NCBI GenBank assembly: GCA_964635715.1
Contig: CAZWNZ010000001.1
Location: 408,616-472,615, forward strand
Length of the DNA stretch: 64,000 bases
DNA from: an uncultured Gammaproteobacteria bacterium
GTDB lineage: Bacteria > Patescibacteriota > Microgenomatia > UBA8517
Reading direction: 5' to 3'
In this document: positions 5,734 to 45,946 of the stretch, piece after piece
Layout: each line of letters begins with the position of its first letter
How positions within the stretch are numbered: the stretch's first letter is position 1
Made by a program: the position numbers and the translations under genes
The notes under the pieces: generated by a model
What the model was told of the DNA's origin: nothing
The model's input: the letters and a program-made list of their open reading frames with translations, nothing else
The model's database searches: none

Positions 5734-6417
5734 TTATTTCTGGAGTTCCTGCCATTTCCTACTGACAATAAACTGATTACGGCGATCTTGAGGGGTCAAT
5801 GATTCTATAAAATTGGAAAAACTTTGTGCTTTTTCATACCTTGAGTTGAATTCTTTTTGAATTTGGACGATGCCGTTGGGCAGTGACTCGGAGTTGGTGT
5901 TGTCAATGTCAACGAGAAACTTTCGTGCATCATTAGGATGAGTTGATAGCTTTAATCTGATGACTTTGTAATTTTCAGGAGGGATTCTATCCGCTATCCA
6001 TTCATCACCGTCAAATCCGTTGTTGTATACACCCTGAAGCTCCGGCCTTATCTTAGGTTTTCTAATATCCAGTCCTTTTGTGTCAATTTCCAAAATTACT
6101 CCACAAACGGGAACTTCAACGAGATCTGTTATTACGCCTCTATCGTTAAATTTTTCAGTTTTTATAGATAATCCAGGAATATTAGTTGATGCATATGCAG
6201 TTTCAGACATAATTCTGTTTGTAGACATATATACACCAAGTTCATTTCCATCACCAATTTTAGTTGGATCGTCTTTGTTTACTCTACCTGGCATCAAAGG
6301 TTTATTGAAAAAATCAGGAGACAATTTACGGGGGTCAACACTAAAAGCACGATATAATACTTTGGGCCTTGTTTCAGTTTCCGAAATTTGTTTTCCAGCT
6401 TCAGGATTAACGTCCAT
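5734..6417 (-). CDS. Hypothetical protein (227 aa)
   Basis: A long ORF antisense-oriented between glyA and folD. No recognisable family. Its R...STN...E residue order is noted in findings. Confidence 0.5.
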   Translation of the reverse strand: MDVNPEAGKQISETETRPKVLYRAFSVDPRKLSPDFFNKPLMPGRVNKDDPTKIGDGNELGVYMSTNRIMSETAYASTNIPGLSIKTEKFNDRGVITDLVEVPVCGVILEIDTKGLDIRKPKIRPELQGVYNNGFDGDEWIADRIPPENYKVIRLKLSTHPNDARKFLVDIDNTNSESLPNGIVQIQKEFNSRYEKAQSFSNFIESLTPQDRRNQFIVSRKWQELQK

Positions 6418-6473
6418 TACAGAATATTATCAAATCTATCTAATTTATTCCAGGGTTGTGTTAAAATAGCCTC

Positions 6474-7274
6474 ATGAAGACAATCATTTTTGACGGCCGA
6501 GCCTTTGCCGAAGAAAAAAAAGAGGAAGTGAAGATTGTGGTCGCGGGTTTGAGATCTCGTGGAGTCGTGCCGCATCTTGCATCAATTTTGATAGGACACG
6601 ATCCGGCAAGCACTCTCTATGTTGGTTTAAAGAAAAGGGCGGCGGAGGGCATTGGAGCAGAACTCGATCCTTATTATCTTCCTGAAAGCACAAAGCTTGC
6701 TGATGTTTTATTGCTGATAGACTCACTTAATTTTGATGAAACTGTTCATGGCATTATGGTCCAACTTCCAATCCCAGGGGAACTAGGAAAACATAAGGAT
6801 GAGATATTAGGCGCCATAGATCCTCAAAAAGATGTTGACGGATTAAAAAATGATAGTAAATATTTACACCCAACCAGTAAGGCGGCTGCCGATATCTTAC
6901 ATTCAGCAGAAAAAGAACTAAAATTGGAAAAGAAGGGGAAGATTGCAATTGTTGGAGCAACAGGTATGGTTGGTGCGCCGCTTGTTAAAGAACTTAAAGT
7001 TGAAGGTTACAATGTTGTGACAGCGGATGGAAAGACATCTGATCTATCGGCAATCATAAAAGACGTCGATATTGTAATAAGTGCTACCGGAGTGCCGGAT
7101 TTGATAAAGCCGGAAATGGTGAAAGAGGGAATTATCGCGATTGACGTTGGCTCTCCAAAAGGAGATTTTGATCCTGAAGTTGAAGAAAAAACGGCATTTT
7201 TTACACCAGTGCCGGGAGGGGTGGGACCTGTTACAATTTCCTGCCTACTTGAAAACCTGATTGATGCCTGTTAG
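6474..7274 (+). CDS. folD: Bifunctional methylenetetrahydrofolate dehydrogenase/cyclohydrolase
   Basis: FolD N-terminal motifs are present (ILIGHDPASTLYVGLKKRA) with a Rossmann-like GATGMVG. The start ATG sits 6 nt after the TGTTAAAAT extended -10. Confidence 0.9.
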   Translation: MKTIIFDGRAFAEEKKEEVKIVVAGLRSRGVVPHLASILIGHDPASTLYVGLKKRAAEGIGAELDPYYLPESTKLADVLLLIDSLNFDETVHGIMVQLPIPGELGKHKDEILGAIDPQKDVDGLKNDSKYLHPTSKAAADILHSAEKELKLEKKGKIAIVGATGMVGAPLVKELKVEGYNVVTADGKTSDLSAIIKDVDIVISATGVPDLIKPEMVKEGIIAIDVGSPKGDFDPEVEEKTAFFTPVPGGVGPVTISCLLENLIDAC

Positions 7275-16266: not shown

Positions 16267-16378
16267 TTTACAATTCACAATTAACAATTTATAACGAGCG
16301 TGTGAAGTTATATTAGCTCGCGAAGCGCTCGAATTCCAAGCTCTTGCTTGAATTTGAAATAGCTTCTACAATTAGAGC

Positions 16379-17833
16379 GTGGCTGATATTTATTTAACCA
16401 ATTCATTAACTAGGACAAAAGAAAAGTTTACTCCGTTAAAATCTAATGAAGTCGGCATGTACACTTGCGGTCCGACGGTTTACAACTATGCCACCATAGG
16501 GAATTTTAGAACTTATTTTAGTGCAGATATTTTACTACGTACTCTGAAATATAACGGTTATAAGGTTAACTACATAATGAATTTGACTGATGTAGGGCAT
16601 CTTACCGGAGATAATCTGGGAGATGCAGACACGGGAGAGGATAGGATGGTGAAAGAGGCGGAGAAGGAAAGGAAAAATGCATGGGATATTGCCAAAGAAT
16701 ATACAAATGCTTTTTTGACGGATTTTCATAAGCTTAATCTCGAAGATCCTGAGAACTTCGTTAAAGCAACAGACCACATAGAAGACCAGATTGATTTGGT
16801 TAAAAAGCTTGAAGGAAAAGGACTGACTTACAAAATTTCCGATGGAATATATTTTGACACAAAAACTTATGAGGAAAAAACTGGTTTTAGGTATGGTGAG
16901 CTTTCTAACCTTGATCAAATAAAAGAAGGGGCAAGAGTTGAAGTAAACCCTGAGAAAAAAAACCCAAGGGATTTTGCTTTATGGAAGTTCAGTTATAGGG
17001 ATGGAAGATCCTTCGACTCCGCCCAGGACGACGCTTCCCGTCGGCGCGACATGGAATGGGATTCGCCTTGGGGGGTTGGTTTCCCTGGTTGGCATATTGA
17101 GTGTTCTGCAATGAGTATGAAATATTTGGGCGAGACTTTCGATATTCATGTAGGCGGCGAAGATTTGAAGTCCACTCATCACCCAAATGAAATTGCTCAG
17201 AGCCAAGGGGCAACCGGTAAAAAATTTGTGGACTTTTGGATTCATGGTGCATTCTTAACCGTTGACGGGGGACGTATGGGTAAAAGTTTGGGAAATGCCT
17301 ATACAATTTCTGATTTAGAGAAAAAAGGATTTTCAGCATTAGACCTGAAATATTTTTATCTTTCAGGAAAATATAACGAACCAATTAATTTTACTTGGGA
17401 ATCACTGACTGCTGCTCAAAATGCTATGGATAAACTCAATTCTCAAATATCAAATCTTAGGTCTCAAAAAGGGCGAACTGTTCTTTCCGAAGAGAAGGAG
17501 ATAAAGATTGAAAATTATAGAAATGAATTTACGATAGCGATAAATGATGATTTAAATACACCGAAAGCCCTGGCTGTGCTTTGGTCAATGCTGGGGAGTA
17601 GTATTCCGTCAGAGGATAAATATGATTTAGCTATGAGTTTTGATGAAATATTAGGGTTGAATCTGGAATCTGGAATCTCGAATTTAGAGAATATAATCCC
17701 GGATAATGTAAAAGTTCTAATGGAAAAAAGGGAACAACTGAGGAAGGAAGGTAAATTTGAGGAAGCGGATAAAGTCCGAGATGAAATAACAAAAGCGGGG
17801 TATCAGGTATTTGATAAGCAAGTTAATAAGTGA
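16379..17833 (+). CDS. cysS: Cysteinyl-tRNA synthetase
   Basis: The class I HIGH region [17 protein letters not shown] is present. KMSKS-like MGKSLGN is present. The zinc site WHIECSAM is present. Confidence 0.9.
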
Positions 17834-22917: not shown

Positions 22918-22995
22918 TTGTGTTAAAATAGCCTCATGGGATTATCAGTTGGGATACTTATTTCACTGTCCCAACTTTTGATTTTAGATTCTTAG
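22918..22995 (+). pseudogene. ychF: Stranded ancestral ychF promoter plus first codons (ychF-prime) at attL
   Basis: The 21-nt TTGTGTTAAAATAGCCTCATG is identical to the folD promoter/start module. The ORF begins MGLSVGI, matching the YchF N-terminus MGxxxGIVGLPNVGKS. It diverges after codon 7 into a 20-codon ORF. Confidence 0.45.
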
Positions 22996-23061
22996 TCACC
23001 CTTCCTAAGGCTAATAAAGAGAGATTGATTCTTGAACGCAATCAACTAGGACAAATTATTC

Positions 23062-23655
23062 GTGCCGAAGTCCCAGGATTACCATATAAATATGCCCAGC
23101 AACAAAATTACTAAACAAAGGACAATCGAAGAAATCAGAGGTTCTCTAGAAAGCTCAGCTACTGGATACGATTCTACTTACATACTGAGAAAGGCTGACG
23201 AGGAAATATCAAAATGTAAAAAGGAACAACTGTATACTCCCGATACTGCTTATTACAAAGCAATGTCATTGTTCGAGTTTGATAAAGGAATTTTGTTACT
23301 CAATTCTCTACCAGACCTTCATGTAGTGTTTGCATTAGATTTTAATAAAAATCTTCAAAAAGAATATGATTGTAAAACACCATCTGAAAAGTCTTTAGCT
23401 GAAATAGTTACCCTCAACTTTATAAGAATATTGGAAACACAAAGAAAGATTAAAGATTGTCAAAAAAATGTTAGTACTAGATACGATATTCAATACATAA
23501 GCATATTAAGTAAGGAGTTAGATAGAGCTGAAAGACATTACCTGGCTTCACTGCAAGCCCTCAGGACGCTTAGAAACCCTTCTTTTGAAGTGAATATTAA
23601 AGCAAATAATGCTGTTGTAGGAAACAACCAAGCGGTGCAAGTTAAAAATGCTTAA
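23062..23655 (+). CDS. Hypothetical protein (element cargo)
   Basis: A 197-aa ORF with no recognised domain. Confidence 0.45.
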   Translation: MPKSQDYHINMPSNKITKQRTIEEIRGSLESSATGYDSTYILRKADEEISKCKKEQLYTPDTAYYKAMSLFEFDKGILLLNSLPDLHVVFALDFNKNLQKEYDCKTPSEKSLAEIVTLNFIRILETQRKIKDCQKNVSTRYDIQYISILSKELDRAERHYLASLQALRTLRNPSFEVNIKANNAVVGNNQAVQVKNA

Positions 23656-23683
23656 TGATTGTTAGCAATTTAGGTTAATTTAT

Positions 23684-24106
23684 ATGTTTAGCCTTCGATA
23701 CGGAAAAAGACCAGTAATAGAAGAATCTCAAAAGATTGGGGCGGGTGTATGTGTTAGAAACTTTTTGTTTGAAACGAAGAAGAAGTACAACCTTAACAGC
23801 GAAGTTGGCGTTAAGGATTTAATAGGTGATATGGAAATTGGAACAAATATCAATCTAAAACAGGATAACTATGGCAAAGTAGACTATTCAGAACCCAACA
23901 AGATCAAATTAACCTACTCAAAGTCTAATCTTAATAAGGGTTATATATTTTGGTTTATCTGTAACCTTTGCAGTAGGCGAGTGAAGTATCTATATTTCCC
24001 CCCAAACTCAACAGTTTTGGCTTGTAAGAACTGCCACAGGTTAGTCTATAATAAGCAGAATGAAAGTAAGAGATTCAGACCTTTCAGGAAGATGTTAGAG
24101 TTGTAA
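23684..24106 (+). CDS. Hypothetical protein with C-terminal CxxC...CxxC zinc ribbon
   Basis: The C-terminus carries CNLCSRR...CKNCHR. Confidence 0.45.
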   Translation: MFSLRYGKRPVIEESQKIGAGVCVRNFLFETKKKYNLNSEVGVKDLIGDMEIGTNINLKQDNYGKVDYSEPNKIKLTYSKSNLNKGYIFWFICNLCSRRVKYLYFPPNSTVLACKNCHRLVYNKQNESKRFRPFRKMLEL

Positions 24107-24115
24107 TTAAGCTAA

Positions 24116-24526
24116 ATGCAACGACATACCTTGAAGCCAATTCTGGTTTTCAAAGATTTTAATCTTCCTTCTGAACTTTGGGTTAATAAATCTGTAAATA
24201 TATACATAAATCACAAGGGAGAAATTTATTGTGACTACTTTGTTATTAAAGATTTTACAAGAACCGAGAACTTTAAACAGAAATACTGGTTTATAAAGCG
24301 GTATTTAGACAAAAAAAGAAAAGCCTATGATGTAACTGGTATTTATAACATAACAATTGGCGATTTGAGACAAATAATGTGGAGTAAGGACATCAAGTCA
24401 ATTTCAAGAAATAGAATAGAGGGAATCGTTCATAATGAGAACCAGATAGCAAATATAAAGGATGACACGATTCAGAGACTTAAGAAATATCTAGAAAAGA
24501 AATTATCGGAGAAAAGAAATGGCTAG
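24116..24526 (+). CDS. Hypothetical protein (136 aa)
   Basis: An ORF with no recognised domain. Confidence 0.4.
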   Translation: MQRHTLKPILVFKDFNLPSELWVNKSVNIYINHKGEIYCDYFVIKDFTRTENFKQKYWFIKRYLDKKRKAYDVTGIYNITIGDLRQIMWSKDIKSISRNRIEGIVHNENQIANIKDDTIQRLKKYLEKKLSEKRNG

Positions 24527-24575
24527 ATGGAGTTAGCCAACACCTCGACTCACTATTTATATTTTGGGTATATAA

Positions 24576-25439
24576 TTGAAGTTGATGGAAGAATCACCAA
24601 TTAAAAGGTTTTTTCGAGTGTTTTTGGTAATTCTTTACTGTGCTTCTTTCCTTTTTTCCGTTTTGATAGGTTTTAGCCTTCAATCTTTTTGGTTTTTTTT
24701 GATATTCTTCCTTATTAGCTGGTTGGTAATAGATATAGTTAACATTTCCACCAAGTACATTACCTCGGGAAAGACCTCAACAACAAAAAGCTGGATATAC
24801 CGAGGTTTCTTAATACTTTTTAACTACGACTCCTTTCTTGCACTTATAAAAAATGAACTTGATGAAGTAATGGCTGATTTTTATAGCGATTTCGTTGATA
24901 AGAAATTATCGGAGCTCATGAAAATCATTCCAAAGAACAAAATTGTCAATGTATTAAAAATGGATAAGGCAGCAAGTGAACAAGAGGAACAGGCTCTTTC
25001 AAAATTGGCAGAAATTTATAAACGAACCGGTAAAGATGAGAATTTTTTTGGCACCAAGGAAAGTTGGGAGTTGGACTTGGATACTCTCAAATCACAAAAT
25101 GAATACGCAAGACTCTCGAAACAAGCTAGGGGATTCCTAAACTTGACCTCGCCACTTATGGGTGATTTTGTTTTGTTAAATCATAAATTGGATAAGGGCA
25201 AGATAAGCCTGGAGAAAGTTTATTCCAAATTGCATAAGGAAAGTAAAAAAAGATACGACCAATTTTGTAAAGATTCTGTCAATTTTTCAGTATGGGTATC
25301 CTTGAGCAATGCTTTAATAAAAGCAAAAGAAAGTGGAGTCGCTTTTGACAAAGCCAAGATTAAGAACGAAGATATTAAGGAAGAGATACAAAGTTATCTA
25401 GCGGACCAGATTTCAACCGCAGAGTCTTTGGTAATTTAA
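24576..25439 (+). CDS. Hypothetical membrane protein (2 N-terminal TM + soluble domain)
   Basis: Hydrophobic N-terminal helices followed by a charged soluble region. Confidence 0.45.
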   Translation: MKLMEESPIKRFFRVFLVILYCASFLFSVLIGFSLQSFWFFLIFFLISWLVIDIVNISTKYITSGKTSTTKSWIYRGFLILFNYDSFLALIKNELDEVMADFYSDFVDKKLSELMKIIPKNKIVNVLKMDKAASEQEEQALSKLAEIYKRTGKDENFFGTKESWELDLDTLKSQNEYARLSKQARGFLNLTSPLMGDFVLLNHKLDKGKISLEKVYSKLHKESKKRYDQFCKDSVNFSVWVSLSNALIKAKESGVAFDKAKIKNEDIKEEIQSYLADQISTAESLVI

Positions 25440-25557
25440 GGTAAAGTTCTTCAGGTACTCACCAAAGATTCGGAATATTTTTGATGTATTTAATAAGAAG
25501 TAGTTCCACTCCACACCCTAACTCACTATATTTTATTTTGAGTTATAATTAACTATA

Positions 25558-26103
25558 GTGAAAAAGATACTTCTAATTCTGTTCATTTTGGTAGTAGTTA
25601 TCGCTGGGTTATTAGTTTATAAAAATATAACCTCAAACACACAAAATACAGAAATTACAGAAGAGCTAACGAAATGCGGACAGCAAATGGCTAATGAAAA
25701 TGGGAAAGGTGTGACAGATTATGAAGGAGTTGTGATACCCGTTGATTTTTCTTCAATGCCTGAGGCAAAACTTTTTTATACTAGGATTACTGAGACTGTG
25801 AAAGATGGTCCTAATTTCGCTAAACATTTTACCTTAGTCTCTTGGGGTTGTGGTACAGATTGTTTCGGATATTCGATTGTTGACACTAATACGGGGGCAA
25901 TAGTTGCTTATATTCCTTCTAATGAAGAGTATCATTTAAGATCAAGTTACAATTTAGACACTACTTATTTCGTTTTTGATCCCGTAAATGCAGGACAAGA
26001 AAGAAAATATTACAAAATGATTGAAGATGACAAAGGAAATGACCGATTGGAACTAGTATGTTCTGAAATCGCCAAAGAGGATATATATGGATTACCTGAA
26101 TAG
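25558..26103 (+). CDS. Secreted hypothetical protein
   Basis: An N-terminal signal/TM is present (MKKILLILFILVVVIAGLLV). Conserved Cys residues are present (WGCGTDCFGY). Confidence 0.45.
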   Translation: MKKILLILFILVVVIAGLLVYKNITSNTQNTEITEELTKCGQQMANENGKGVTDYEGVVIPVDFSSMPEAKLFYTRITETVKDGPNFAKHFTLVSWGCGTDCFGYSIVDTNTGAIVAYIPSNEEYHLRSSYNLDTTYFVFDPVNAGQERKYYKMIEDDKGNDRLELVCSEIAKEDIYGLPE

Positions 26104-26117
26104 TTTTATCTCCTAGA

Positions 26118-26321
26118 TTGGGGGTGATGTTTATGAAAAAAAGACTAACTCCGATACAACAAATTTTAGTAGGTATAGGTATTTACTTGTTGTCTTCAAT
26201 AATATCTTATCCAATCAACGCAGTATTTGAAGTTGTTGGAGCAATAGCATTTTTAAGCGGGTCAATAACATTAATAGTAAATTTTTTTAAGAAGAAAAAT
26301 AATAAAAAGTTATTGAATTGA
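26118..26321 (+). CDS. Small 2-TM membrane protein
   Basis: 67 aa with two hydrophobic helices and a basic tail. Confidence 0.35.
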   Translation: MGVMFMKKRLTPIQQILVGIGIYLLSSIISYPINAVFEVVGAIAFLSGSITLIVNFFKKKNNKKLLN

Positions 26322-26324
26322 AGT

Positions 26325-26552
26325 GTGGCAAGTTATAATATATGTATGACAATTATCCACGTTCGTATTCTGGGAATAGAGGGTAATTATCGTTTTTGGG
26401 TAAGCAGGGATCCATACGAGATAAATCCAACTCCATCATATGAATCCGAAAGTTTTTATGAAACCAAGAAGGAAGCTAAAGAGGCATTGGGTAGTTTTCT
26501 GAAAGACAAAAAAGAAGATTGGGGAAAGATTGATATTAGATGGTCTAAGTAG
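26325..26552 (+). CDS. Hypothetical small protein
   Basis: A 75-aa ORF. Its start lies 4 nt after the upstream stop. Confidence 0.3.
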   Translation: MASYNICMTIIHVRILGIEGNYRFWVSRDPYEINPTPSYESESFYETKKEAKEALGSFLKDKKEDWGKIDIRWSK

Positions 26553-26764
26553 ACAAGCTCCACTGCGACTCACGATACTTATATTAGATTTTCTTGTTAT
26601 TGCTTCTACTATCAATTTTTATAAGAAGTTCAAAATAATTTACTAAATTGTTGGCTACTTCTTGTGCTTCGGTATCTGAATAAACGACTCCATAGTCTTC
26701 ACGAAATATTTTTTGAAGGCTTTTGATTAGTTTTGGTTTGAAGCGCACAATTTATTTTGGCTAT

Positions 26765-27349
26765 TTAACTATATCCATATATCATCAGACCAACTATGAA
26801 CAGCACAGATATAACAGCAATAATATAAGCAAAAGTACTTGGTTTATCTGTTTGAACAACTACAGTATCGGCCTTTTTATCGTGAAAAGTTTGTTTTTCT
26901 TCATCTTTGCCCATATTCCAATAACCAATTCCAAAAAATAGGCCAGAAAGAATTTGTAGTAATGACCTCTTTAATGCTTGCCCACCTGACAGGTGAGACC
27001 TATCCTTTTTGTCCAATACAATAAGGTTTAACAAACTCTTGCCTGGTGTTCTAGACCAAGTTGAAAGAAAAAAAATACTATAGATGACATATCCAGTTGT
27101 AAATATTAAGCCGTAAGAATCATCTGACGGCTCTCCTTCAAATAACATCAGAATGATTATTAAAAGAATCAGCAGGATGGAGTAGTCAACACAATATGCA
27201 GCCAATCTAATCCAAAAACCAGCGTATGTTACGGCCTCTTTTTTATTTGGTAAATCTTTTTCTTCGTGGTTTTGGGAGAGCTTGTTACCACAGAAACGGC
27301 AGAACTTACTGTTGTCTGGTAACTCTTTCCCACAATATTTGCAAAACAT
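26765..27349 (-). CDS. Zinc-ribbon + RDD-family membrane protein
   Basis: The N-terminus is CKYCGKELPDNSKFCRFCGNKL. An RDD-like polytopic domain follows (RLAAYCVDYSILL..., RTPGKSL). Confidence 0.6.
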   Translation of the reverse strand: MFCKYCGKELPDNSKFCRFCGNKLSQNHEEKDLPNKKEAVTYAGFWIRLAAYCVDYSILLILLIIILMLFEGEPSDDSYGLIFTTGYVIYSIFFLSTWSRTPGKSLLNLIVLDKKDRSHLSGGQALKRSLLQILSGLFFGIGYWNMGKDEEKQTFHDKKADTVVVQTDKPSTFAYIIAVISVLFIVGLMIYGYS

Positions 27350-27354
27350 AATAA

Positions 27355-27732
27355 TTATTTCTTTCCTTCCTCTTTTTTAGATTCTTCCTCAGCTTTTTCT
27401 AAAAGAGACTCTGGATTCATTTTATACCAAAAACCTCTAATAAGTTTGTAAATCCCGTAAATCATTGCTCCCCATAACACATAGTATGTCCCACCTTCCG
27501 AAGCGAAGAGCCAACCTCCACCAGTTATTACTAATCCAATAACAAACCAAATAACACCTTGCTTCATTTCACCCTCTGCTAAAGCTTTAGCTTCTTCGAT
27601 AAGTGATTGTTTTTTATTCTTGAAATATCTATCAACTGAGCCTTCCTCTTCGTTTTTAGTCATCCCTTTTCCACATTTCGAGCAGAACTTTGCATCTGAA
27701 TCGTTGTTTTGACCACAATTAGTACATTCCAT
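27355..27732 (-). CDS. Zinc-ribbon protein with two TM helices
   Basis: The N-terminus is CTNCGQNNDSDAKFCSKCGKGM. Two hydrophobic helices follow. Confidence 0.55.
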   Translation of the reverse strand: MECTNCGQNNDSDAKFCSKCGKGMTKNEEEGSVDRYFKNKKQSLIEEAKALAEGEMKQGVIWFVIGLVITGGGWLFASEGGTYYVLWGAMIYGIYKLIRGFWYKMNPESLLEKAEEESKKEEGKK

Positions 27733-27734
27733 AT

Positions 27735-28394
27735 TTATTTCCTATACTTAGATTCTGTTATCCCACCTAAATAACCCCAAAATATAAGGATAAAAACATC
27801 GGTTTTAATGCGTTCGATTAGCTCGTTTGGCAAATCTTTCACGGAATCGGATGAATCTAGTATAGTATTTAACTCATATTCAAAGAATCTGTTCATCGAA
27901 TGTTCAAGGTCAGGTAAAAATTTTTTTTGATGCTCTTCGAATTTTTGGGCTATTAAAGATTGCCACTCTTTGATAAATGGCTCAAGTTCTATGTGCTTAG
28001 GAGTTTTCAAATCCTTATTTTTTAGTAAAGCCTCAGCCATCCAGAACCAATAACCTCCACTAGCACACCATCCATAAACATTTTTTAACGTTTCTATTAC
28101 TTTATAGGGTTGTTTATTTAGCGAGTCCTTATTGTCTTGAATAAAATTCTCAAACTGGTTTGTAGAGATTCTTTTTATCAGTTCCCAAACTTCATTAGAA
28201 GATAAGTCTTCGTAGACTTTTCGCTCATCACCTGTAGAATCGTATATCTCAGCAAATTTATCCCAAAGGTCCACATTCTTTTTTGGAGCAGAAGTATCTT
28301 TTTTTGTTTTAACCTCTTTATTCACTTGCTCACCACAATAACAACAAAATTTACTATCAGGGTCTATCTGTTTATGACAATTATTACAGTCCAT
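27735..28394 (-). CDS. Zinc-ribbon protein, cytoplasmic alpha-helical domain
   Basis: The N-terminus is CNNCHKQIDPDSKFCCYCGEQV. No TM is predicted. Confidence 0.5.
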   Translation of the reverse strand: MDCNNCHKQIDPDSKFCCYCGEQVNKEVKTKKDTSAPKKNVDLWDKFAEIYDSTGDERKVYEDLSSNEVWELIKRISTNQFENFIQDNKDSLNKQPYKVIETLKNVYGWCASGGYWFWMAEALLKNKDLKTPKHIELEPFIKEWQSLIAQKFEEHQKKFLPDLEHSMNRFFEYELNTILDSSDSVKDLPNELIERIKTDVFILIFWGYLGGITESKYRK

Positions 28395-28989
28395 AATCTG
28401 CTCCTTCTATTTCCCAAACCCACCAATAGTCACCCTGTGGGTAAAAGGTTAGGGGAACCTCAAAACTAAATGCTCCATTAGATACAGCTCCGCTTTCAAT
28501 GATGGTGTTTCTGGTGTCAAAATGCTTTTTTAAGGCTTCATCGTAGTAAAAATCAAGTCTTACCTTTACATTCCGAGCAGCTTTTGAATAGGTGTTTTTA
28601 AGTATTCCTGTAAAGTAACTTTCTCCAGCATCGTCGTACAGAATTTCATAATCCGTTATAGTTAAGTAGCTTATGGGGAAGTTTGTTGGCTCAGAGACTG
28701 ATTGCTCGCTTGTAATGTTTTCATCGGTCGGTATTGCGGCAAGTATAAGTATTCCCACAAAACCCAGCCCCCCCAACACCAAAACACCGATAATTATATT
28801 TTTAAGGGAAACACCTTTCTTCTTAGGTTTGAAAATTATATCGTCAAGGTCTTCAATTTGCTCGTGTAAAGTTTTAGCTTCGCTTTTTTCGGATGCTCCA
28901 CTTTTTTTAGAAAGATCATAACCACAGTTCTGGCAATATTTACTTTTTTCTAAATTACTATAATCGCAATCGGGACATTTTGTCTTCAT
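28384..28989 (-). CDS. Zinc-ribbon, single-TM protein with extracytoplasmic domain
   Basis: The N-terminus is CPDCDYSNLEKSKYCQNCGYDL. A TM follows (IIIGVLVLGGLGFVGILILAAI), then a ~110-aa C-terminal domain. Confidence 0.55.
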   Translation of the reverse strand: MKTKCPDCDYSNLEKSKYCQNCGYDLSKKSGASEKSEAKTLHEQIEDLDDIIFKPKKKGVSLKNIIIGVLVLGGLGFVGILILAAIPTDENITSEQSVSEPTNFPISYLTITDYEILYDDAGESYFTGILKNTYSKAARNVKVRLDFYYDEALKKHFDTRNTIIESGAVSNGAFSFEVPLTFYPQGDYWWVWEIEGADYGL

Positions 28990-28992
28990 AAT

Positions 28993-29760
28993 TTATTTTA
29001 CACCAAAACTTTCTCGCCAAAAACCTATAAGATTTCTAATTCTATTTGTTGTTAGGGGGTGATCTCCCAACAACTCACTAAACTTAACAGAAGTTCTGTT
29101 TGCTGTTTTTATTTGTGATACATATCCCTTAATATCTAGTTTTTCATAGAGAACTTTCCCTATGGATATTTTTATGAGTGCTGAAATTGCACTATCCACA
29201 TCTTTTGTCGCAATCAAACCGCATCTGTCACAGGAGTATTCAGTTTTCCTATTCCAAAATCCAAAAATTAAATTACTTAAGAAATTGTTGCTTCCGATCG
29301 GTACTAATAGGGTAGAAATTTTTGTATGGCCTGCTTTGTAATGTCCCAACTCGTGCCCAATAACAAAATTTAACTCCTTTTGATTTAATTGTTCTACTAA
29401 CGCAGATGTTAGAACAACGGTGCAACTTGTAATGCCGAGTGTGTACGCTTGAAGGTATGGGTCTTGAATGATGTATAGTGAGGCCCTGTTTATTCCAAGT
29501 TTTTCAGCGTTAGTCCTAAAAGTATCGTAAATATCAGGATATTGTTTTGAATGAACTCTAATGGCATTTCCCAAATATTGTGATTGTTGAAGGTGAACAT
29601 AGATTAGGGCGCCTATCAAAAGCAGAACAAAAATATAGATATTAAATGTATAAAGAAAATAACTTATTAGAGAAATAATCAACAAGGTCACTATCAAAGC
29701 GATATTTTCGTAAGGAACACGAAACATCCAAGATTCTATTGTTGTTTTTCTATCTTCCAT
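28993..29760 (-). CDS. M48-family zinc metallopeptidase (HtpX-like), membrane-anchored
   Basis: Two N-terminal TMs are present. An HExxH motif is present (VIGHELGHYKAGH). A downstream E/D and the C-terminal GDHP...RI are typical of M48. Confidence 0.7.
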   Translation of the reverse strand: MEDRKTTIESWMFRVPYENIALIVTLLIISLISYFLYTFNIYIFVLLLIGALIYVHLQQSQYLGNAIRVHSKQYPDIYDTFRTNAEKLGINRASLYIIQDPYLQAYTLGITSCTVVLTSALVEQLNQKELNFVIGHELGHYKAGHTKISTLLVPIGSNNFLSNLIFGFWNRKTEYSCDRCGLIATKDVDSAISALIKISIGKVLYEKLDIKGYVSQIKTANRTSVKFSELLGDHPLTTNRIRNLIGFWRESFGVK

Positions 29761-29959
29761 CTTGCTTTTTAGTATTAGAGTCCTTTCTGGAAAACATTTT
29801 GTAAACCAGATAAGGGAAAAATATAAAAGATGTAAAAGTTAATAAGGTAAATAGAGGTGGCCTTTCGATACCAAAAAAGACAAAGACAAGGGTACCCAGT
29901 GCCCAAAGGACAAACGAGAGAAAAACCCCTATTATTATAGAACCTATGACTTTAATCAT
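29750..29959 (-). CDS. Small 2-TM membrane protein
   Basis: 69 aa and hydrophobic. Overlaps the M48 gene start. Confidence 0.4.
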   Translation of the reverse strand: MIKVIGSIIIGVFLSFVLWALGTLVFVFFGIERPPLFTLLTFTSFIFFPYLVYKMFSRKDSNTKKQDGR

Positions 29960-29960
29960 A

Positions 29961-30263
29961 TTAACTTTTTCTTTCTTTTATTGAATAAGCTGATATAAAA
30001 AATAAGACTGCCGAGATTAAATCTATTCCAACCCAAGAACTCTTATTCATATAAACAGGAATCAGGGGATTGAAAAGAAAGGCTAGGGCACCAAAGATAA
30101 GCACCCAACCTGTTAACTTTGATTTTGAGAACCCAATTGCGTTAAAAATTGCTACTCCGCAAACAACCCATCTGAGGATTATGTAATAGTCGTATGGCCA
30201 AATGTTTAATATTCCCAAGAGCAGAAGGACCCCAGAAATAATTGAAGGCCATTTAATATTCAT
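29961..30263 (-). CDS. Small 3-4 TM membrane protein (first gene of minus-strand cargo operon)
   Basis: 100 aa and hydrophobic. Confidence 0.45.
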   Translation of the reverse strand: MNIKWPSIISGVLLLLGILNIWPYDYYIILRWVVCGVAIFNAIGFSKSKLTGWVLIFGALAFLFNPLIPVYMNKSSWVGIDLISAVLFFISAYSIKERKS

Positions 30264-30399
30264 ATTACATATTTATAAACTGCGAACTAGCCAAATTTTA
30301 CACCCTTTTATTAGAAAAATCTAAGAAATTCGAAATCATTAGTGGTAAAATACAAATATAAACTGCCCGTGATAAACGGGTTTTTTTTGTAAATGTAAT

Positions 30400-31530
30400 A
30401 TGTCAAAGAAAGATGAAGAGATATTGTTGGCTGATGAACTCAGGAAACGGATAGATAATCTTAAGATAATTGATAAGCCTAGTCCATTTTTTAGGGAGGT
30501 TGCACGAACGGCTGAATGGATGGGTGAGATATTGTTATTTGAGCAACCACTTTTTGCCCTAGACCTTCAAAGTAAAAAGCGAGATAAAGAATCATTGCAG
30601 ATATTGAAGGATATGCACTCCAAAGGCAGAGTCATTTGGTCTGCTATAAAAAAAATACCAATTACTCTTGAAAAGACACGGCCAGAAGTTCAACAATCGC
30701 TTGCGAGTTTGCATCAGTATTACGAAATGCCACACCCTCAGTACGGAATCGGGCTATATCACAGTTTGAGGATAGTGGTTGAGTATCTTATTTCTAGTAA
30801 CAATTCAAAAGGGCTTGAGAAATTTGTAGACAGGAATAACCCCGTTAAGTATCCGAATTTTCGAGGTGAAATGTATGATCTACTAATTGCTTACAATAAG
30901 AAACAGGATTTAATAAAAAAAGAACTCGCCCTTAGTCTTTGGGGTGCTTGGGACAATCTTAAGTATGTAAGCTACCTTGCAGGAATAGATAACGACTATC
31001 CACAACTTGAAGATTGGGCTAAGGTTTTTACAAAGGATGAATACTTTGTACATCTTCACAAAGTATCAGATTACTTATTTGATTGGCTGGTGTTAGGTAA
31101 AAAAGGTGACAAATTAAGTGGTGACCCACTGCTCGAATCTGCTGTTTGGGATAAGAAATTTAATTTTGAAATTGACCCTAACACCGAAATTGATAATGCA
31201 AATTTTGGACAGTATGGAGTAGTTAGGTTTTACCCAGGTAAATCTCCAACTAAAGTGGAAGGTGATAGTAAACTAAACGCAAATCAATTATTTCTTAAAA
31301 AATTGTTTGAAGCTGGCGAGAAAGGTGTATCTAGAAAAGAGCTGGCCGAGTATATGGATATAAGAGAGAATGACATTAAAGCCTATGTTAACGGGGCCGA
31401 TAAAGTTTTTCGAAATAGTTACAAAAAACAAAAAGTTAAAGCAAATATTTACGTATCTGCAGATAGCGAGATAATTAGGTTGATTGTTATACCTGTCGAA
31501 AGTGAGAATAATCAAAATACCGAAGCTTAG
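30400..31530 (+). CDS. Hypothetical protein with C-terminal winged-helix-like region
   Basis: 376 aa. The C-terminus is LFLKKLFEAGEKGVSRKELAEYMDIREND. Confidence 0.45.
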   Translation: MSKKDEEILLADELRKRIDNLKIIDKPSPFFREVARTAEWMGEILLFEQPLFALDLQSKKRDKESLQILKDMHSKGRVIWSAIKKIPITLEKTRPEVQQSLASLHQYYEMPHPQYGIGLYHSLRIVVEYLISSNNSKGLEKFVDRNNPVKYPNFRGEMYDLLIAYNKKQDLIKKELALSLWGAWDNLKYVSYLAGIDNDYPQLEDWAKVFTKDEYFVHLHKVSDYLFDWLVLGKKGDKLSGDPLLESAVWDKKFNFEIDPNTEIDNANFGQYGVVRFYPGKSPTKVEGDSKLNANQLFLKKLFEAGEKGVSRKELAEYMDIRENDIKAYVNGADKVFRNSYKKQKVKANIYVSADSEIIRLIVIPVESENNQNTEA

Positions 31531-31566
31531 CTAATCTTCTTTTTATCTTATAACTAATCTTCTCGC

Positions 31567-31839
31567 TTGTTTTATGCTTCAGGCAAGATGTTAAATGTTA
31601 ATGAAGATAGATGGAAGAGCAAAGATTTTTATTTGAGTTGCGTTATTCGTGCCTCTGGGTTTGAACTCATAACCCTTGAAAGGAAAGAACACGACTTCAG
31701 CGTTTTTGTTTTTGACATTTCTCCTCAAAAGGCAGAAGAAATAATTTCTCTTCACTGGTCTAAACAGTTGAAACTTCCCACCAAGGATTTAGTTGAAGCA
31801 ATCAATGAATTAAGAACAAGGTTAAAAAGTGGAGTCTAA
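31567..31839 (+). CDS. Hypothetical small protein
   Basis: A 90-aa ORF. Confidence 0.35.
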   Translation: MFYASGKMLNVNEDRWKSKDFYLSCVIRASGFELITLERKEHDFSVFVFDISPQKAEEIISLHWSKQLKLPTKDLVEAINELRTRLKSGV

Positions 31840-32038
31840 TATGGAAAATTTAAATGTTATCGAAAAAGCATTGGAACTTTATGACGAAGTCGACAATTTG
31901 GCTAAGGACTGGCTAATAAAAAGTTGGAAACTAAAGGACGAGGATAAGGAGATTGCAAGATTGTATTACCAAAAGGCTTGTAAAAAGCGATTAGAACTAG
32001 CGAAAAGATTGGAGGGATTATGCAACCAGACAAAATAA
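31829..32038 (+). CDS. Hypothetical small protein
   Basis: A 69-aa helical ORF that overlaps its neighbours. Confidence 0.3.
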   Translation: MESNMENLNVIEKALELYDEVDNLAKDWLIKSWKLKDEDKEIARLYYQKACKKRLELAKRLEGLCNQTK

Positions 32039-33351
32039 CATTTGATCCAGCAAAAGATATTAAGGATTCGATTTATGAGATTACTAAAGTTGAAAAAGAA
32101 TGGGAAGAAATAACCTCGGAAGACATACTAAAAGTATTAGGTCAGACAATAAAGAAAGATGATTTTAATAAACTCCTAGTCTTTCTGTGCCAGCTTTTAG
32201 CATATTCGGAAAGTAGTCAGATAAATCTTTCTTTTAATGCTCCAAGCAGTAGTGGCAAAAGCTATTTGGCTTTGGAAATCGCAGACTTATTTCCCAAAGA
32301 AGATGTCCTTAAACTTGGTTATGCTAGCCCGACTTCCTTTTTCCATACAACCAGCGAATATTCCAAAGAAAAGAATGGCTATGTAGTGAATCTTGAAAGG
32401 AAAATTGTGGTTTTTCTTGATATGCCACACTCATTACTTTTACAGCATTTAAGACCGCTTCTAAGCCATGATGAAAAGGAAATATTAGTTAAGATTACTG
32501 ACAAATCAGCCAAGGGGGGAATAAGAACAAAAGACATTTTTATTAGAGGTTATCCTGCAGTTCTTTTTTGTTCGGCAAACTTTAACTTAGATGAACAAGA
32601 GTTAACAAGGTTCATCCTTCTTAGCCCAGAAACCAACCAAGAAAAGATAAGAGAAGCAATTTACGAGCGGGTAAAAAAGGAAGCAGATAAAGAAGGGTAT
32701 TTTAAACTCTTAAACGAAAACCCAGACAGACAAGCCTTGAAACAGAGAATTGTTGATGTCAGAGATTCTCTTGTTAGTAAAATTGATTTAGGTAACCCAG
32801 AAAAATTACTTCAGATGTTCTATGAACGCAATGAGATTCTTAAACCTAGACATTCAAGGGACATTCAACGAATCGCTTCCTTGGCCAAGGCATTTGCCTT
32901 ACTTAACCTTTGGACCCGAGAAAGAGTGGGGGATGCAATTAAGACAAATGAAAAGGACCTTGAAAATGCTTTTAAGATTTGGGACGAGATAAGTATTGCA
33001 CAAGATTTAGGGGTTTCTCCTTATATTCTTAATCTCTACAAAGAAGTTATTGTCCCCGTTTATGAAGAAAAAGGTAAAGCAGGACTAACCAGACAGGAGG
33101 TTTTGAAAAAACATTTTGAGGTTTATGGAAGACATATAGCCGATTGGCAGTTGAGGCAAGAAATAGTGCCAATAATGAAGACTTCTGGACTTATTTCTGA
33201 AGAACAGGACCCGCTTGATAAAAGAAAACTTCTTATTTACCCCCTAGTACAGCTCACTACATCTGGAGCTCAAGAAATAGTGAGTGAGAGGGGGGAGGAG
33301 GGTGTAACAGAAGCTCAAATCGAGGATATTTTTGGAGTAAAACCTATATGA
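32020..33351 (+). CDS. P-loop NTPase, possible primase/helicase-like replication protein
   Basis: A Walker A-like NAPSSSGKSYLALEIADL is present. Walker B-like VVFLDM is present. The C-terminal winged-helix region resembles the phage/plasmid primase C-terminal NTPase. Confidence 0.45.
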   Translation: MQPDKITFDPAKDIKDSIYEITKVEKEWEEITSEDILKVLGQTIKKDDFNKLLVFLCQLLAYSESSQINLSFNAPSSSGKSYLALEIADLFPKEDVLKLGYASPTSFFHTTSEYSKEKNGYVVNLERKIVVFLDMPHSLLLQHLRPLLSHDEKEILVKITDKSAKGGIRTKDIFIRGYPAVLFCSANFNLDEQELTRFILLSPETNQEKIREAIYERVKKEADKEGYFKLLNENPDRQALKQRIVDVRDSLVSKIDLGNPEKLLQMFYERNEILKPRHSRDIQRIASLAKAFALLNLWTRERVGDAIKTNEKDLENAFKIWDEISIAQDLGVSPYILNLYKEVIVPVYEEKGKAGLTRQEVLKKHFEVYGRHIADWQLRQEIVPIMKTSGLISEEQDPLDKRKLLIYPLVQLTTSGAQEIVSERGEEGVTEAQIEDIFGVKPI

Positions 33352-33557
33352 ACAAACCACTTTTACCAATAATTACATTTAAGGATATTGTTTCGGATGG
33401 AAAGAGGGTTGAAACTGCCTATTTTAGGATATTTGAGATAGCGAGGAAAAATATTTTGATGAAAAGGATGTTGACAAATCCAATGTCGCAGAAGTACACT
33501 GAAATACATAATGAAAAATCAATATCTAACAATCGAGGAGGTGGCCAAAATGCTTAG
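33348..33557 (+). CDS. Hypothetical small protein
   Basis: A 69-aa ORF. It partly overlaps the better-supported Xis-like ORF in another frame. Confidence 0.25.
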   Translation: MNKPLLPIITFKDIVSDGKRVETAYFRIFEIARKNILMKRMLTNPMSQKYTEIHNEKSISNNRGGGQNA

Positions 33558-33678
33558 AGTTAATAAAAGAACTGTATATAGATTGGCCGTAAAAGGAGAA
33601 ATTCCAGCTTTCAGGTTTGGCAGGTCTTGGAGGATAGATTCTAATAAGTTGGATGGAATATTTAAGAGAAAGAAATGA
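33511..33678 (+). CDS. Excisionase/AlpA-like HTH DNA-binding protein (55 aa), not in ORF track
   Basis: Translation gives MKNQYLTIEEVAKMLRVNKRTVYRLAVKGEIPAFRFGRSWRIDSNKLDGIFKRKK, a classic Xis/MerR-type HTH_17 fold. Its stop overlaps the recombinase start (ATGA). Confidence 0.6.
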   Translation: MKNQYLTIEEVAKMLRVNKRTVYRLAVKGEIPAFRFGRSWRIDSNKLDGIFKRKK

Positions 33679-35327
33679 AAAGCGATAATCAAATACAGGA
33701 ACCGATGAATGTTGCTCTTTATGCAAGGGTTTCAACTGGTAGGCAGGAGAATGAACAGACCATTGAATCCCAATTAGATGAAGTTAAGAGAAAAATAGCG
33801 GATGATGGTAATACTTTATTACCTCAAAACATCTTTATAGACGATGGATGGAGCGGAGAACTTCTAGCAAGGCCTTCACTTGATAACTTAAGGGATGCAG
33901 TTAAAGATAATAGTTTTGAAGCAGTTTATGTTTATGATAGAGGTAGGCTTTCCAGGACCTTCTTTCACCAGGAGCTTGTTATAAGTGAACTAAGCGATTT
34001 AGGAATCCAATTTATTTCACTTCATGATGTTAAAGCCACAACTCCTGAGGAGAAAGTCTTGCAATCAATGCAGGGGGTATTCCACGAATACGAAAGAATT
34101 AAGATTGCAGAGAGAATGAGAAGGGGAAAAATGTATCACGCAAAGGAAGGGAAAATAATAAATGGTCAGGCTTTGTATGGTTACTCTTATAAGAAAAGGG
34201 AGGATGGAAATGTAGACTACCTTATAAACGATGACGAGGCGGGAGTAGTAAGAAAGATTTGGAATTGGTTTGGAAATGATAATCTAGCCGTTCATACAAT
34301 CCAGAGGAGATTATTTGACCTTAAAATTATGCCCCAGAAGGGTAAATCTGATTTTTGGTCCAAAAGTGTTATTACCAGACTTCTTAAACAGGAAACCTAT
34401 GTGACAGGTAAGGCTTTTTATAATAAATCGGAAGCGGTTGTAGCCAAACACCCGATGAACAATGGTAAGTATAAGAAAGTTAAGAAAAGTAGTAGGAAAG
34501 TAAAGTCTCGTGAAGACTGGATTCCTTTTGATGTCCCCAGAATAATTACAGATTATTCACTTTATGAGAAGGTTCAAAAGAAACTTGAATATAACAGAGT
34601 CTATGCAAACAAAAAATCTAAATACGACTACCTACTTTCTGGTTTAATTTATTGTGGTTGTGGGAACAAAAGAGTTGGGGACGGTTGCAGCAAAAACGGG
34701 CACTTTTATTACAGGTGCATTGATAGGATTAGAAGCGGGGTATACGAGAGGAAATGCAAATCAAGTGGTATAAACGCTGCGATTTTGGATGGTCTGCTCT
34801 GGAAAGAACTAAGAAAAAAGCTTTTTAGTTACCCAATAATGAAGAAATATGCCGAAAAGTGGATTAAATCAGTATCGGTTTTAAGTAGTGAAGACTTGCT
34901 TGAGAAGCGAAGACTTAATGAAATGATAGTAAAGACTACAGAAGAAGAAAATCGTTATTCAAAGGCTTACGGAGTTGGAACTTTAGAATTCGACCAATTC
35001 CAGAATTTAATGAAAGACGCCAAAAAGCGAAGAGTTTCTTATCAAAAACAATTATCAGAATTGGCCAATAAATCGGCAGAAGTTAATGTTCAGATAGAGG
35101 TCGATGAGCTATTAGCGGAAGTGATGAGTGTGGTTAAGGATATAGATTTTAGTGATAAATTTAGGGTAATTCGAGATATAATAGACAAAGTTATCGTAAC
35201 AGAAAGGAGCGGTGCAGAAATATGTGCGCATTTACCATTACCAGTCACAATCACCGAAAAGTTGGGATATGAGCCTGAGCGTAGGGATTGTTGGCTTGCC
35301 AAATGTAGGCAAGAGCACTCTTTTTAA
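33675..35327 (+). CDS. Large serine recombinase (serine integrase)
   Basis: The N-terminal resolvase catalytic domain is VALYARVSTGRQENEQTIESQ. A recombinase domain and a zinc-ribbon domain follow (CGCGNKRVGDGC...YYRC). It has a coiled-coil C-terminus. The 3' end spans attR and overlaps ychF by 59 nt. Confidence 0.85.
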   Translation: MKSDNQIQEPMNVALYARVSTGRQENEQTIESQLDEVKRKIADDGNTLLPQNIFIDDGWSGELLARPSLDNLRDAVKDNSFEAVYVYDRGRLSRTFFHQELVISELSDLGIQFISLHDVKATTPEEKVLQSMQGVFHEYERIKIAERMRRGKMYHAKEGKIINGQALYGYSYKKREDGNVDYLINDDEAGVVRKIWNWFGNDNLAVHTIQRRLFDLKIMPQKGKSDFWSKSVITRLLKQETYVTGKAFYNKSEAVVAKHPMNNGKYKKVKKSSRKVKSREDWIPFDVPRIITDYSLYEKVQKKLEYNRVYANKKSKYDYLLSGLIYCGCGNKRVGDGCSKNGHFYYRCIDRIRSGVYERKCKSSGINAAILDGLLWKELRKKLFSYPIMKKYAEKWIKSVSVLSSEDLLEKRRLNEMIVKTTEEENRYSKAYGVGTLEFDQFQNLMKDAKKRRVSYQKQLSELANKSAEVNVQIEVDELLAEVMSVVKDIDFSDKFRVIRDIIDKVIVTERSGAEICAHLPLPVTITEKLGYEPERRDCWLAKCRQEHSF

Positions 35328-36372: not shown

Positions 36373-36418
36373 CTAATTTCTAATTGCTAATTTCTAATTT
36401 CTAATCTATAATCTGAGC

Positions 36419-36706
36419 ATGAACAAATATGAATTGACTTTAGTTTTGGATGGCAAATCAGGAGCTGTCACTAAAAAGAAAGTCACTGAAACTTTGGAAA
36501 AAGTTTTGGGGATTTTTAAAGGTGTAATTAAAGAATCTAAAGAATTGGGAGTTAAAGAACTTGCCTACAAAATAGGTAAAAGTGAGACTGGGATGTATCT
36601 TTTTTTTGAGATAGAGGTTGATCCGAAAGGTGCAAAGTCTCTTAACGAGAAACTTAAGAACGACGCTGATATAATTAGGTATCTGCTAATTAATAAAGAG
36701 AAATAA
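36419..36706 (+). CDS. rpsF: 30S ribosomal protein S6
   Basis: The MNKYELTLVL...LAYKIGK...GMYLFFEIE pattern is present. It sits in the rpsF-ssb-rpsR operon. Confidence 0.8.
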   Translation: MNKYELTLVLDGKSGAVTKKKVTETLEKVLGIFKGVIKESKELGVKELAYKIGKSETGMYLFFEIEVDPKGAKSLNEKLKNDADIIRYLLINKEK

Positions 36707-45917: not shown

Positions 45918-45946
45918 TGTGAAAACAATGTTATTATAATAGTGCC

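Follow-up and report, generated by a model that had tools for sequence, protein, structure and literature searches.

Extended −10 elements (TGn), together with the TRTGn −16 region, occur in sigma-A/sigma-70 promoters of E. coli and Firmicutes. The SCC elements of staphylococci use CcrAB serine recombinases, have rlmH (orfX) as their target and form tandem arrays as well as recombinase-less pseudo-SCC arrays. Leaderless gene starts define the 'group C' genomes of GeneMarkS-2, belonging to Actinobacteria and Deinococcus-Thermus (e.g., M. tuberculosis and D. deserti), in which a Pribnow-type box lies 6–8 nt before the start codon and 25–50% of the transcripts are leaderless (PMC6028130). The −10 element is separated from the transcription start site by 7 bp, with a Y-R-Y start element, and an enrichment of TG/TRTG at promoters has also been noted (PMC12641261). 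In CPR/Patescibacteria, which are mostly uncultured, the rules of promoters and translation starts are almost undocumented. Our literature search on leaderless or Shine-Dalgarno (SD) usage in CPR found nothing specific, and for CPR start sites it yielded a single set, inferred from RNA-seq in N. lyticus. The leaderless group C architecture is known and its description in Microgenomates CPR is, by the literature searched, new.

Here we analyzed a stretch of 64,000 nucleotides (the window) with a G+C content of ~0.38, in which one short sequence recurs before three genes. In our judgment this sequence probably is a complete core promoter fused to the start codon, that is, the standard leaderless design of the host, present in three copies with different histories. 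Like the group C genomes (PMC6028130), the window carries a Pribnow-type box before the first genes of operons and no SD, and the would-be leaderless share, ~25–40% of first-in-unit genes, is broadly comparable to the 25–50% reported there for transcripts. Unlike them, the host is a CPR/Microgenomates bacterium with ~38% G+C, about half of its putative promoters show the extended −10 TG and a weak −35, and the host genes outside the leaderless set are also nearly devoid of SD motifs.

Copies of the module in the window

A sequence-only reading of this DNA had reported a 21-mer, TTGTGTTAAAATAGCCTCATG, as identical before folD and before a stranded ychF-prime, and the window search confirmed both exact occurrences, on the plus strand (Table 1). 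The third copy, TTTTGTTAAAATAGCTTCATG, which precedes yebC on the same strand, had been given one mismatch. This is right for the 17-mer GTTAAAATAGCYTCATG or if a 2-nt gap is admitted; without gaps there are two mismatches (19/21). All three copies lie on the coding strand and end in a genuine start codon, and the gap from TAAAAT to ATG is exactly 6 nt in each of them. Exact occurrences of the core TGTTAAAATAG in the window were restricted to these sites, and no match with up to three mismatches appeared in 100 dinucleotide-preserving shuffles. Beyond the edges of the 21-mer there was no identity between the copies. Among the 19 window sites with the pattern TANNNT-N6-start codon, the module trio shared 21, 19, and 19 of 21 positions and the other pairs at most 16. 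The folD junction was reproduced by an independent assembly (L139, Logan SRR8925806) and thus is not an assembly artefact. The repetition of the module is therefore confirmed.

The copies also adjoin rearrangement points in all three cases, namely the orphan gene at folD, the inserted element at ychF and an IS200-like gene upstream of yebC, as might be expected of a dispersed repeat (REP- or MITE-like) or of a chance recurrence unrelated to gene starts. However, this explanation is scarcely credible, given the empty shuffles, the small number of copies and their invariable place at gene starts on the coding strand. In addition, neither flanking inverted repeats nor target duplications were found at the copies, those of ychF and yebC occupy orthologous positions in several genomes, and viral contigs gave 0 module matches.

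Table 1. Positions in the window of the module copies, the genes that they precede, the element inserted at ychF and other leaderless-type starts.
Feature	Position	Strand	Basis or remark
Orphan gene	5734..6417	−	Between glyA and folD
Leaderless-type start of the orphan gene, TAATAT-6 nt-ATG	6415..6429	−	Divergent from folD
Module copy 1, predicted folD promoter and start	6456..6476	+	Exact match; Pfam-supported start
Copy 1, TRTG/TG	6457–6460	+
Copy 1, −10 TAAAAT	6462–6467	+
Copy 1, discriminator AGCCTC (6 nt)	6468–6473	+
Copy 1, ATG	6474–6476	+
Copy 1, predicted start site	A6474	+	Placed by geometry
folD, 266 aa	6474..7274	+	PF00763 and PF02882; homologues
Leaderless-type start, TTGCTT-17 nt-TACAAT-tagagc-GTG, putative cysS	16367..16381	+	Name from synteny
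Module copy 2, predicted native ychF promoter and ATG, orphaned	22918..22938	+	−10 at 22924–22929; ATG at 22936
ychF-prime remnant, 19 codons and stop	22936..22995	+	Translation
Hairpin GTTGGGAT-N13-TCCCAAC, then TTTTGATTTT	22948..22985	+	RNA fold −17.7 kcal/mol, z = −3.0
Integrative element, 12,333 bp between two ATGs	22953..35285	.	Empty versus filled site; composition; repeats
Large serine recombinase, 550 aa, at the right edge of the element	33675..35327	+	PF00239, PF07508, PF13408; phrog_95 integrase, E = 4e-75
Intact ychF, 367 aa	35269..36372	+	tblastn, 79% identity over 1–367 to L004 YchF
Leaderless-type start, TATAAT-ctgagc-ATG, putative rpsF (S6)	36407..36421	+	Name from synteny
Leaderless-type start, TATAAT-agtgcc-ATG	45935..45949	+
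Module copy 3, predicted yebC promoter and start	57738..57758	+	Match; Pfam; orthologous conservation
Copy 3, TG	57741–57742	+
Copy 3, TAAAAT, then AGCTTC	57744–57749 (TAAAAT)	+
Copy 3, ATG	57756	+
yebC, 245 aa	57756..58493	+	PF20772 and PF01709
Leaderless-type start, TTGACA-17 nt-TAATAT-agatta-ATG (full −35)	60937..60951	+
Predicted empty attB site			...AGCCTCATGGGATTATCAGTTGGGATTGTTGGC...
Predicted circular attP junction			...AAAAGTTGGGATATGAGCCTGAGCGTAGGGATACTTATTTCACTGTCCCAACTTTT...

Promoter geometry and translation starts

The ATGs closing the folD and yebC copies are the true starts of these genes, as the Pfam N-terminal domains of FolD and YebC begin at residues 7 and 5, respectively, and both N-termini align with their orthologues from Met1. 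On crude ORF calls, and with some orthologous and non-independent sites included, the distance from a TANNNT box to the first start codon peaked at exactly 6 nt in the window (16 of 74 ORFs, against 0.8% of internal ATGs at this spacing and no more than 3% at any spacing), and in ten loci from relatives the box was found at 6 nt in 26/141 genes versus 0/685 internal ATGs. Both strands of the window together contain 64 TANNNT-N6-RTG sites; 18 of them provide a start for an ORF of 70 aa or longer, which in 16 cases is the first start of that ORF. Among genes that are first in their transcription unit, the box was present at 6 nt in ~13/52 and at 5–9 nt in 21/52. SD-like motifs were detected in only one of 58 host genes and were depleted with respect to internal ATGs both in the window and in the relatives. 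In the window, GGAG/GAGG preceded 4% of the starts and 11% of the internal ATGs. The AGCYTC hexamer of the module does not contain an SD core either.

A matrix was built from 57 unique sites chosen solely by the TANNNT-N6-start pattern, which left TG, TTG and the base at −1 unselected. It displayed T/T/G/A at −35 to −32 with a 17-nt spacer, T-15/G-14 in 47% of the sites, T at −17, and G at −1 in 2%. When compared with 4,528 control −10-like hexamers, TG at −15/−14 amounted to 49% versus 6% (p = 1e-16), TTG at −35 with a 17-nt spacer to 14% versus 2%, and a pyrimidine at −1 to 76% versus 51%. TGT-TAAAAT is present in the three module copies, and their −35 windows (TCTAAT, TCCGTG, and TTCCTT) indicate a weak or absent −35. 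A sigma-70 scanner called none of the three sites because it requires a −35 element, a result which fits an extended −10 promoter but must also be taken as a caveat. The C-A-T context and the 7 bp from the −10 to the start agree with the published geometry (PMC12641261), which would place a canonical sigma-70 start, +1, on the A of the ATG.

The module is thus most likely an extended −10 promoter with transcription starting on the ATG itself, a reading that is well supported computationally, with the start site placed by geometry. Its core would consist of the TRTGnTAAAAT extended −10, with little or no −35, the 6-nt AGCYTC discriminator and the ATG, whose A would take the usual start position of RNA polymerase within a pyrimidine-purine-pyrimidine triplet (C-A-T). 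The transcript would then begin with AUG and be translated without 5′ UTR or SD. Both the extended −10 (TGnTAAAAT) and the leaderless start without SD had been proposed by the sequence-only reading, and they are supported by the TG, TTG and −1 pyrimidine enrichments, the 6-nt peak, the depletion of SD and the retention of TG and TAAAAT in orthologues while n varies. Its 6–7 nt between the −10 and the ATG narrows to 6.

As regards the E. coli and Firmicutes promoters, the likeness lies in TRTGnTAnAAT, the dispensable −35 and a predicted start 7 bp after the −10 on Y-R-Y. The module would differ from them in drawing its +1 purine, an A, from the start codon, so that the discriminator determines at the same time where the coding sequence begins; moreover, AGCYTC is conserved as a unit at ychF and yebC.

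The absence of SD motifs and the A-rich upstream regions of many non-leaderless genes of the window could also be accommodated by a non-SD ribosome-binding or translation-enhancing role of the A/T-rich box in a longer 5′ UTR (the Bacteroidota-type 'group B'), with transcription starting further upstream. However, the box has companions at promoter distances (TG at −15/−14, TTG at −35 with the 17-nt spacer, and avoidance of G at −1), its spacing is fixed at exactly 6 nt instead of being spread, and it is largely a feature of genes that come first in their transcription unit, which makes such a role very unlikely. From the sequence of the window and its relatives, the leaderless gene-start design appears to be the norm in the host, a Microgenomates/Woesebacteria-like CPR bacterium according to the names of its homologues. 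Among the other starts listed in Table 1, the name of rpsF agrees with the ribosomal protein S6 gene located after ychF in the relatives L155, L157, and L158, and that of cysS with the order recR, tRNA-synt_1e in the relative L141. The window contained no rRNA gene, and its only Rfam match was one tRNA.

Conservation of the module at ychF and yebC

In four lineages with 82–86% identical YebC, the yebC promoter region was TTTTTGnTAAAATAGCTTC(C)ATG. The base at −13 (the n of TGn) was T, G, A, or C across these lineages; TG, TAAAAT and the 6-nt spacer were kept. A more distant yebC lineage presented TATAAT-N10-ATG. At ychF, the sequence was [T]TGTGTTAAAATAGCYTCATG in the window, L004, L001, and L155, CGTGTTAAAATGGCTTCATG in L157 and ATGCTAAAATACGCTCATG in L158, and the gene behind this module is intact in L004, with stranded remnants following the module in L001 and L155. 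The mean pairwise identity was 0.94 at −18..−1, as opposed to 0.49 (yebC) and 0.38 (ychF) at −60..−19 and 0.63 at the third codon positions of yebC; the ychF set represents three independent lineages, since the native copy of L155 is identical upstream to L004. This contrast between the module and its flanks indicates that the whole TG-to-ATG unit, including the discriminator, is under purifying selection at both genes. Hence the ychF and yebC copies can be regarded, on this comparison, as orthologously conserved ancestral promoters.

A scan of species genomes with the 20-mer TKTGTTAAAATAGCYTCATG gave 18 matches, one per genome stretch, seven of them in named CPR records. Ten of these matches lie at the start of ORFs that reach 150 aa or more and have canonical N-termini (YchF, EF-P, YidC, MurB, LepA, LigA, and PolA). 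We also considered that AGCYTC could be the universal optimum of leaderless starts, and this was rejected: in a metagenome sample of TGTGTTAAAAT-N6-ATG sites (n = 121) AGCCTC appeared once and AGCTTC never, with 0 among the sites opening long ORFs. Nor is AGCYTC the consensus of the other promoters of the window. It looks instead like a gene- and clade-specific conserved discriminator. Within the window, the 21-mer is special beyond its architecture; across CPR at large, it is not.

The retention of AGCYTC in ychF and yebC orthologues while their flanks were randomized, together with the presence of the translation factors YchF, EF-P, and LepA among the 20-mer genes of other CPR genomes and of YebC here, hints weakly at a possible shared regulatory role at ychF and yebC. 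On this basis, the 15–21 nt bearing AGCYTC would be a regulatory signature of translation-linked genes, either a common operator or a discriminator-based growth-rate control. We regard this as unlikely. Other translation genes of the window have different spacers (ctgagc in the putative rpsF and aatttt in the putative frr), and folD, murB, ligA, polA, and yidC are non-translation genes. Moreover, the sample of 20-mer genes is small and was picked post hoc by a pattern that fixes AGCYTC, and the octamer TAGCYTCA was not enriched as a dispersed word elsewhere in the window (7 versus 3.5 expected).

The element inserted at ychF and the origin of the folD copy

The description of ychF-prime as stranded proved correct, as an inserted element stands between it and the intact ychF, 12.3 kb further downstream. 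The reading frame that begins at the ATG of the second copy is just 19 codons long, MGLSVGILISLSQLLILDS, and a hairpin and a T-run come after it; it comprises the ATG and host codons 2 to ~6 (MGLSVG) and then element-derived sequence. In L004, the module and ychF are uninterrupted between the same flanking genes, which represents the empty site. The G+C content of the element is lower (0.34–0.35), its boundaries are ambiguous within a shared GGGAT, and 10-bp repeats AGTTGGGATA are located at 22947–22956 and 35260–35269, in addition to an inverted copy. The recombinase, with its resolvase, recombinase, and zinc-ribbon domains, is at the element edge and its 3′ end overlaps the start of ychF. 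The intact ychF has its first 5–6 codons, ATGAGCCTGAGCGTAGG, supplied by the element and now lacks the leaderless module.

The first copy in L155 keeps the first 17 nt of the L004 ychF, which puts the crossover at or after +17, and the CTGAGC codons of the ychF-proximal junction were found only in the window and in the element relic of L162, that is, next to element DNA. Both observations point to a crossover at about codon 6, with the substitute ATG and first codons coming from the element, and led us to reject a crossover right after the ATG. In the reconstructed attP, perfect 11-bp inverted arms, AAAAGTTGGGA and TCCCAACTTTT, are centered on the presumed crossover. The second copy would then be the ancestral ychF promoter, orphaned by the integration of the 12.3-kb serine recombinase element at about codon 6, and would now drive only the remnant up to the hairpin and T-run. 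The hairpin appears, from its sequence, to be the left-end arm of the element attachment site, and the same hairpin architecture was present at five independent left junctions. It is also likely to serve as a terminator for the orphaned promoter, as predicted from its fold; a simple terminator scan admits loops of up to 8, and the longer loop of this hairpin made the scan pass it over. A structured RNA at 22936–23000 was considered and rejected, the tRNA being the only Rfam match of the window, and an apparent compensatory change with respect to L001 is better read as belonging to the attachment-site arm. A phage origin of the element was also rejected, since the viral contigs contained neither a relative of the recombinase nor the module; the recombinase was alone in having a significant PHROG match.

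Filled ychF sites differed in size: 12,333 bp in the window, 1,213 bp in L155, and 818 and 1,002 bp in L158, with L004 empty. L155 and L156 have 1.2 kb with two small genes and without recombinase, L158–L161 two tandem cassettes, and L162 a relic with only the C-terminus of the recombinase; L001 shows the left junction and then the contig end. The L155 and L158 elements bring their own promoter-ATG module, which is found there two to three times in tandem (e.g., GTGTTAAAATAGCTTCATG in L155). It is mobile DNA that multiplies the module in the relatives. As in SCC, there is a large serine recombinase, a single housekeeping target, tandem build-up, target repeats between elements and a target gene that stays intact. 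Unlike SCC, the target is the 5′ end of ychF (~codon 6) and not a 3′ end, and the host is a CPR bacterium. Because of the 5′-end location the elements have to replace the ATG and first codons of the gene, to which those of L155 and L158 add a replacement promoter. The orphaned copy would reveal a leaderless start as a hotspot of integration, which demands of the incoming element that it restore the promoter and the start codon together.

With regard to folD, three relatives with 72–79% identical FolD have this gene 26–32 nt after glyA, and their promoter region, TGTTGTATAAT-ATGCCC-ATG, has a TATAAT box and also the 6-nt leaderless design with a different sequence. The orphan gene between glyA and folD exists only in this lineage, where a 56-nt intergenic region is common to the orphan gene and folD. 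The different promoter and the lack of the orphan gene in the relatives indicate that folD acquired its copy within this lineage; the copy may have recently replaced the ancestral promoter when the orphan gene was inserted. It is to the ychF version that the folD copy is identical (21/21), and not to that of yebC; promoter function alone does not account for such an identity. The exact reuse of the module, regarded by the sequence-only reading as unusual, is consequently explained for ychF and yebC as old orthologous promoters of an architecture found genome-wide; the folD copy needs a separate explanation.

Mobile DNA is a possible vehicle for it. Under this hypothesis, a portable module of the ychF-targeting elements, or else a short stretch of the ychF promoter transferred by gene conversion, would have been captured at the glyA-folD insertion. 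The identity to the ychF version, the different folD promoter of relatives without an intervening gene, and the module copies brought by the L155 and L158 elements favor such a capture, which we hold tentatively as a real possibility. However, neither the element-end motif (GTTGGGAT/TCCCAAC) nor a ychF-like codon is found near folD, and the identity of folD to ychF stops sharply at 21 nt; a longer homology was sought by comparing the flanks, found absent and rejected. In addition, the orphan gene has no homologue in the fetched loci, Pfam, or PHROGs, and the ancestral and new folD promoters are already alike at 11/18 positions, for which a stepwise change is also conceivable. More doubtful is the broader proposal that the module is a portable unit in its own right. 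According to it, Microgenomates serine-recombinase elements and recombinase-less cassettes would target the leaderless ychF start and stack in tandem, each with its own promoter, ATG and first codons and insulated by a hairpin terminator, and unrelated genes, such as folD, would capture the module. If this were true, CPR bacteria would have in the portable module their own equivalent of SCC or of integron-like cassette arrays, with a leaderless gene start at its core.

For the preferred reading of a core promoter fused to the start codon, the finding points to sequences usable in CPR expression constructs and bears on translation initiation by the reduced CPR ribosomes; YchF itself has been linked to the translation of leaderless mRNA (PMC12641178). 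If the extended −10 abuts the starts and SD is rare throughout the clade, gene callers would misplace starts. Displaced starts were seen at the three module genes: folD was called as MPMKT..., yebC began at a TTG further upstream, and ychF was lengthened to 386 aa.

Integration at the 5' end of ychF

The ychF gene has a hotspot of integration at its 5' end, at approximately codon 6. In the window this position is occupied by the 12.3-kb element, which encodes a large serine recombinase; in relatives, short cassettes lacking a recombinase were found there, stacked in tandem. Each of these cassettes was flanked by a copy of the promoter, the ATG and the first codons, and was also bounded by the conserved end GTNGGGAT-N13-TCCCWAC-TTTGATTT. 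The related locus L004 carries the empty site.

As regards the start of ychF after integration, a 10-codon mini-ORF (MTQFIATKNL) in the related locus L155 begins at the ATG of the element-borne promoter-ATG module, and its stop codon overlaps the ychF ATG (ATGA). This arrangement suggests a leaderless upstream ORF whose translation is coupled to that of ychF. In addition, some 86 nt before ychF, the 3'-terminal part of the recombinase gene contains the conserved GATATAAT, which is still present in the relic found at L162. This motif is a candidate replacement promoter, from which the ychF mRNA would be leadered after integration.

Translation starts in the element and in the host

SD-like motifs were found in 5 of the 16 genes within the element versus only 1 of the 58 host genes, and the −10 box at 6 nt from the start codon was present in 1/16 and 15/58 genes, respectively. 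The element bears foreign translation-start signals, SD being scarcely used by the host. Automatic gene calls set the starts of folD, yebC and ychF further upstream than the leaderless ATG, apparently a systematic error in start placement brought about by the leaderless architecture.

Coordinates of the features discussed (L-numbers are loci from related genomes; P0264 is an automatic gene call for YchF)
Feature	Location	Remark
Filled or junction sites at ychF	window 22953-35285; L155 1788-3001; L158 1181-3001; L001 1-123; L162 4113-4303	
Mini-ORF	L155 2954-3003	
GATATAAT	window 35177-35182; L162 about 4210	
Element genes compared	window 23062-35268	
FolD	L140, L142	begun as MPMKT... by automatic calls
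YebC	L149-L154	given TTG start by automatic calls
YchF	P0264; window 35212-36372	called 386-aa automatically
Region with the orphan 227-aa gene	window 5657-6473	gene itself at 5734-6417
IS200-like (Y1 transposase) gene	window 57007-57651	directly upstream of yebC promoter
Hairpin (CTCCGAAAC/GTTTCGGAG)	window 57666-57697	after IS200-like gene
Period-7 arrays (examples)	window 8549-8579, 9200-9230, 12457-12484, 15612-15638, 15700-15722, 16265-16289, 18246-18279, 36373-36405, 39959-39986, 40890-40927, 58473-58504, 58532-58554	
Inteins in DnaB and GyrA	L145 491-3091, 16606-20559	Intein_splicing, LAGLIDADG domains
442-aa gene	window 43942-45270	syntenic position of relatives' DnaB

Surroundings of folD and yebC

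The genes glyA and folD adjoin in relatives, and in the window an orphan gene of 227 aa, for which no homologue was found in Pfam, PHROG or the loci compared, is inserted between them. The divergent leaderless-type starts of this gene and folD share a 56-nt spacer, and the palindrome CGCACGTGCG lies between the 3' end of the orphan gene and glyA. The yebC promoter itself is intact; a homologue of the adjoining IS200-like gene is located further upstream in the related locus L148.

Period-7 arrays, inteins and taxonomic labels

The window contains 18 short period-7 tandem arrays (about 1.6 expected from shuffles), with varied units such as ATTGTAA, CTAATTT, ACTAAAT and AGTAGCA, among others. 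About two-thirds of them are in intergenic spacers, and several reach directly to −10 boxes. A few were present in L147, the closest relative, and almost none in more distant relatives.

Inteins were observed in both DnaB and GyrA of the relative represented by L145; the 442-aa gene of the window appears to lack the DnaB intein. Finally, L005, L008, L016, L017 and L018, with 33–47% G+C, are titled 'uncultured Gammaproteobacteria', labels that are probably wrong; the YidC N-terminus of L016 is nearly identical to that of the Shapirobacteria record L006.
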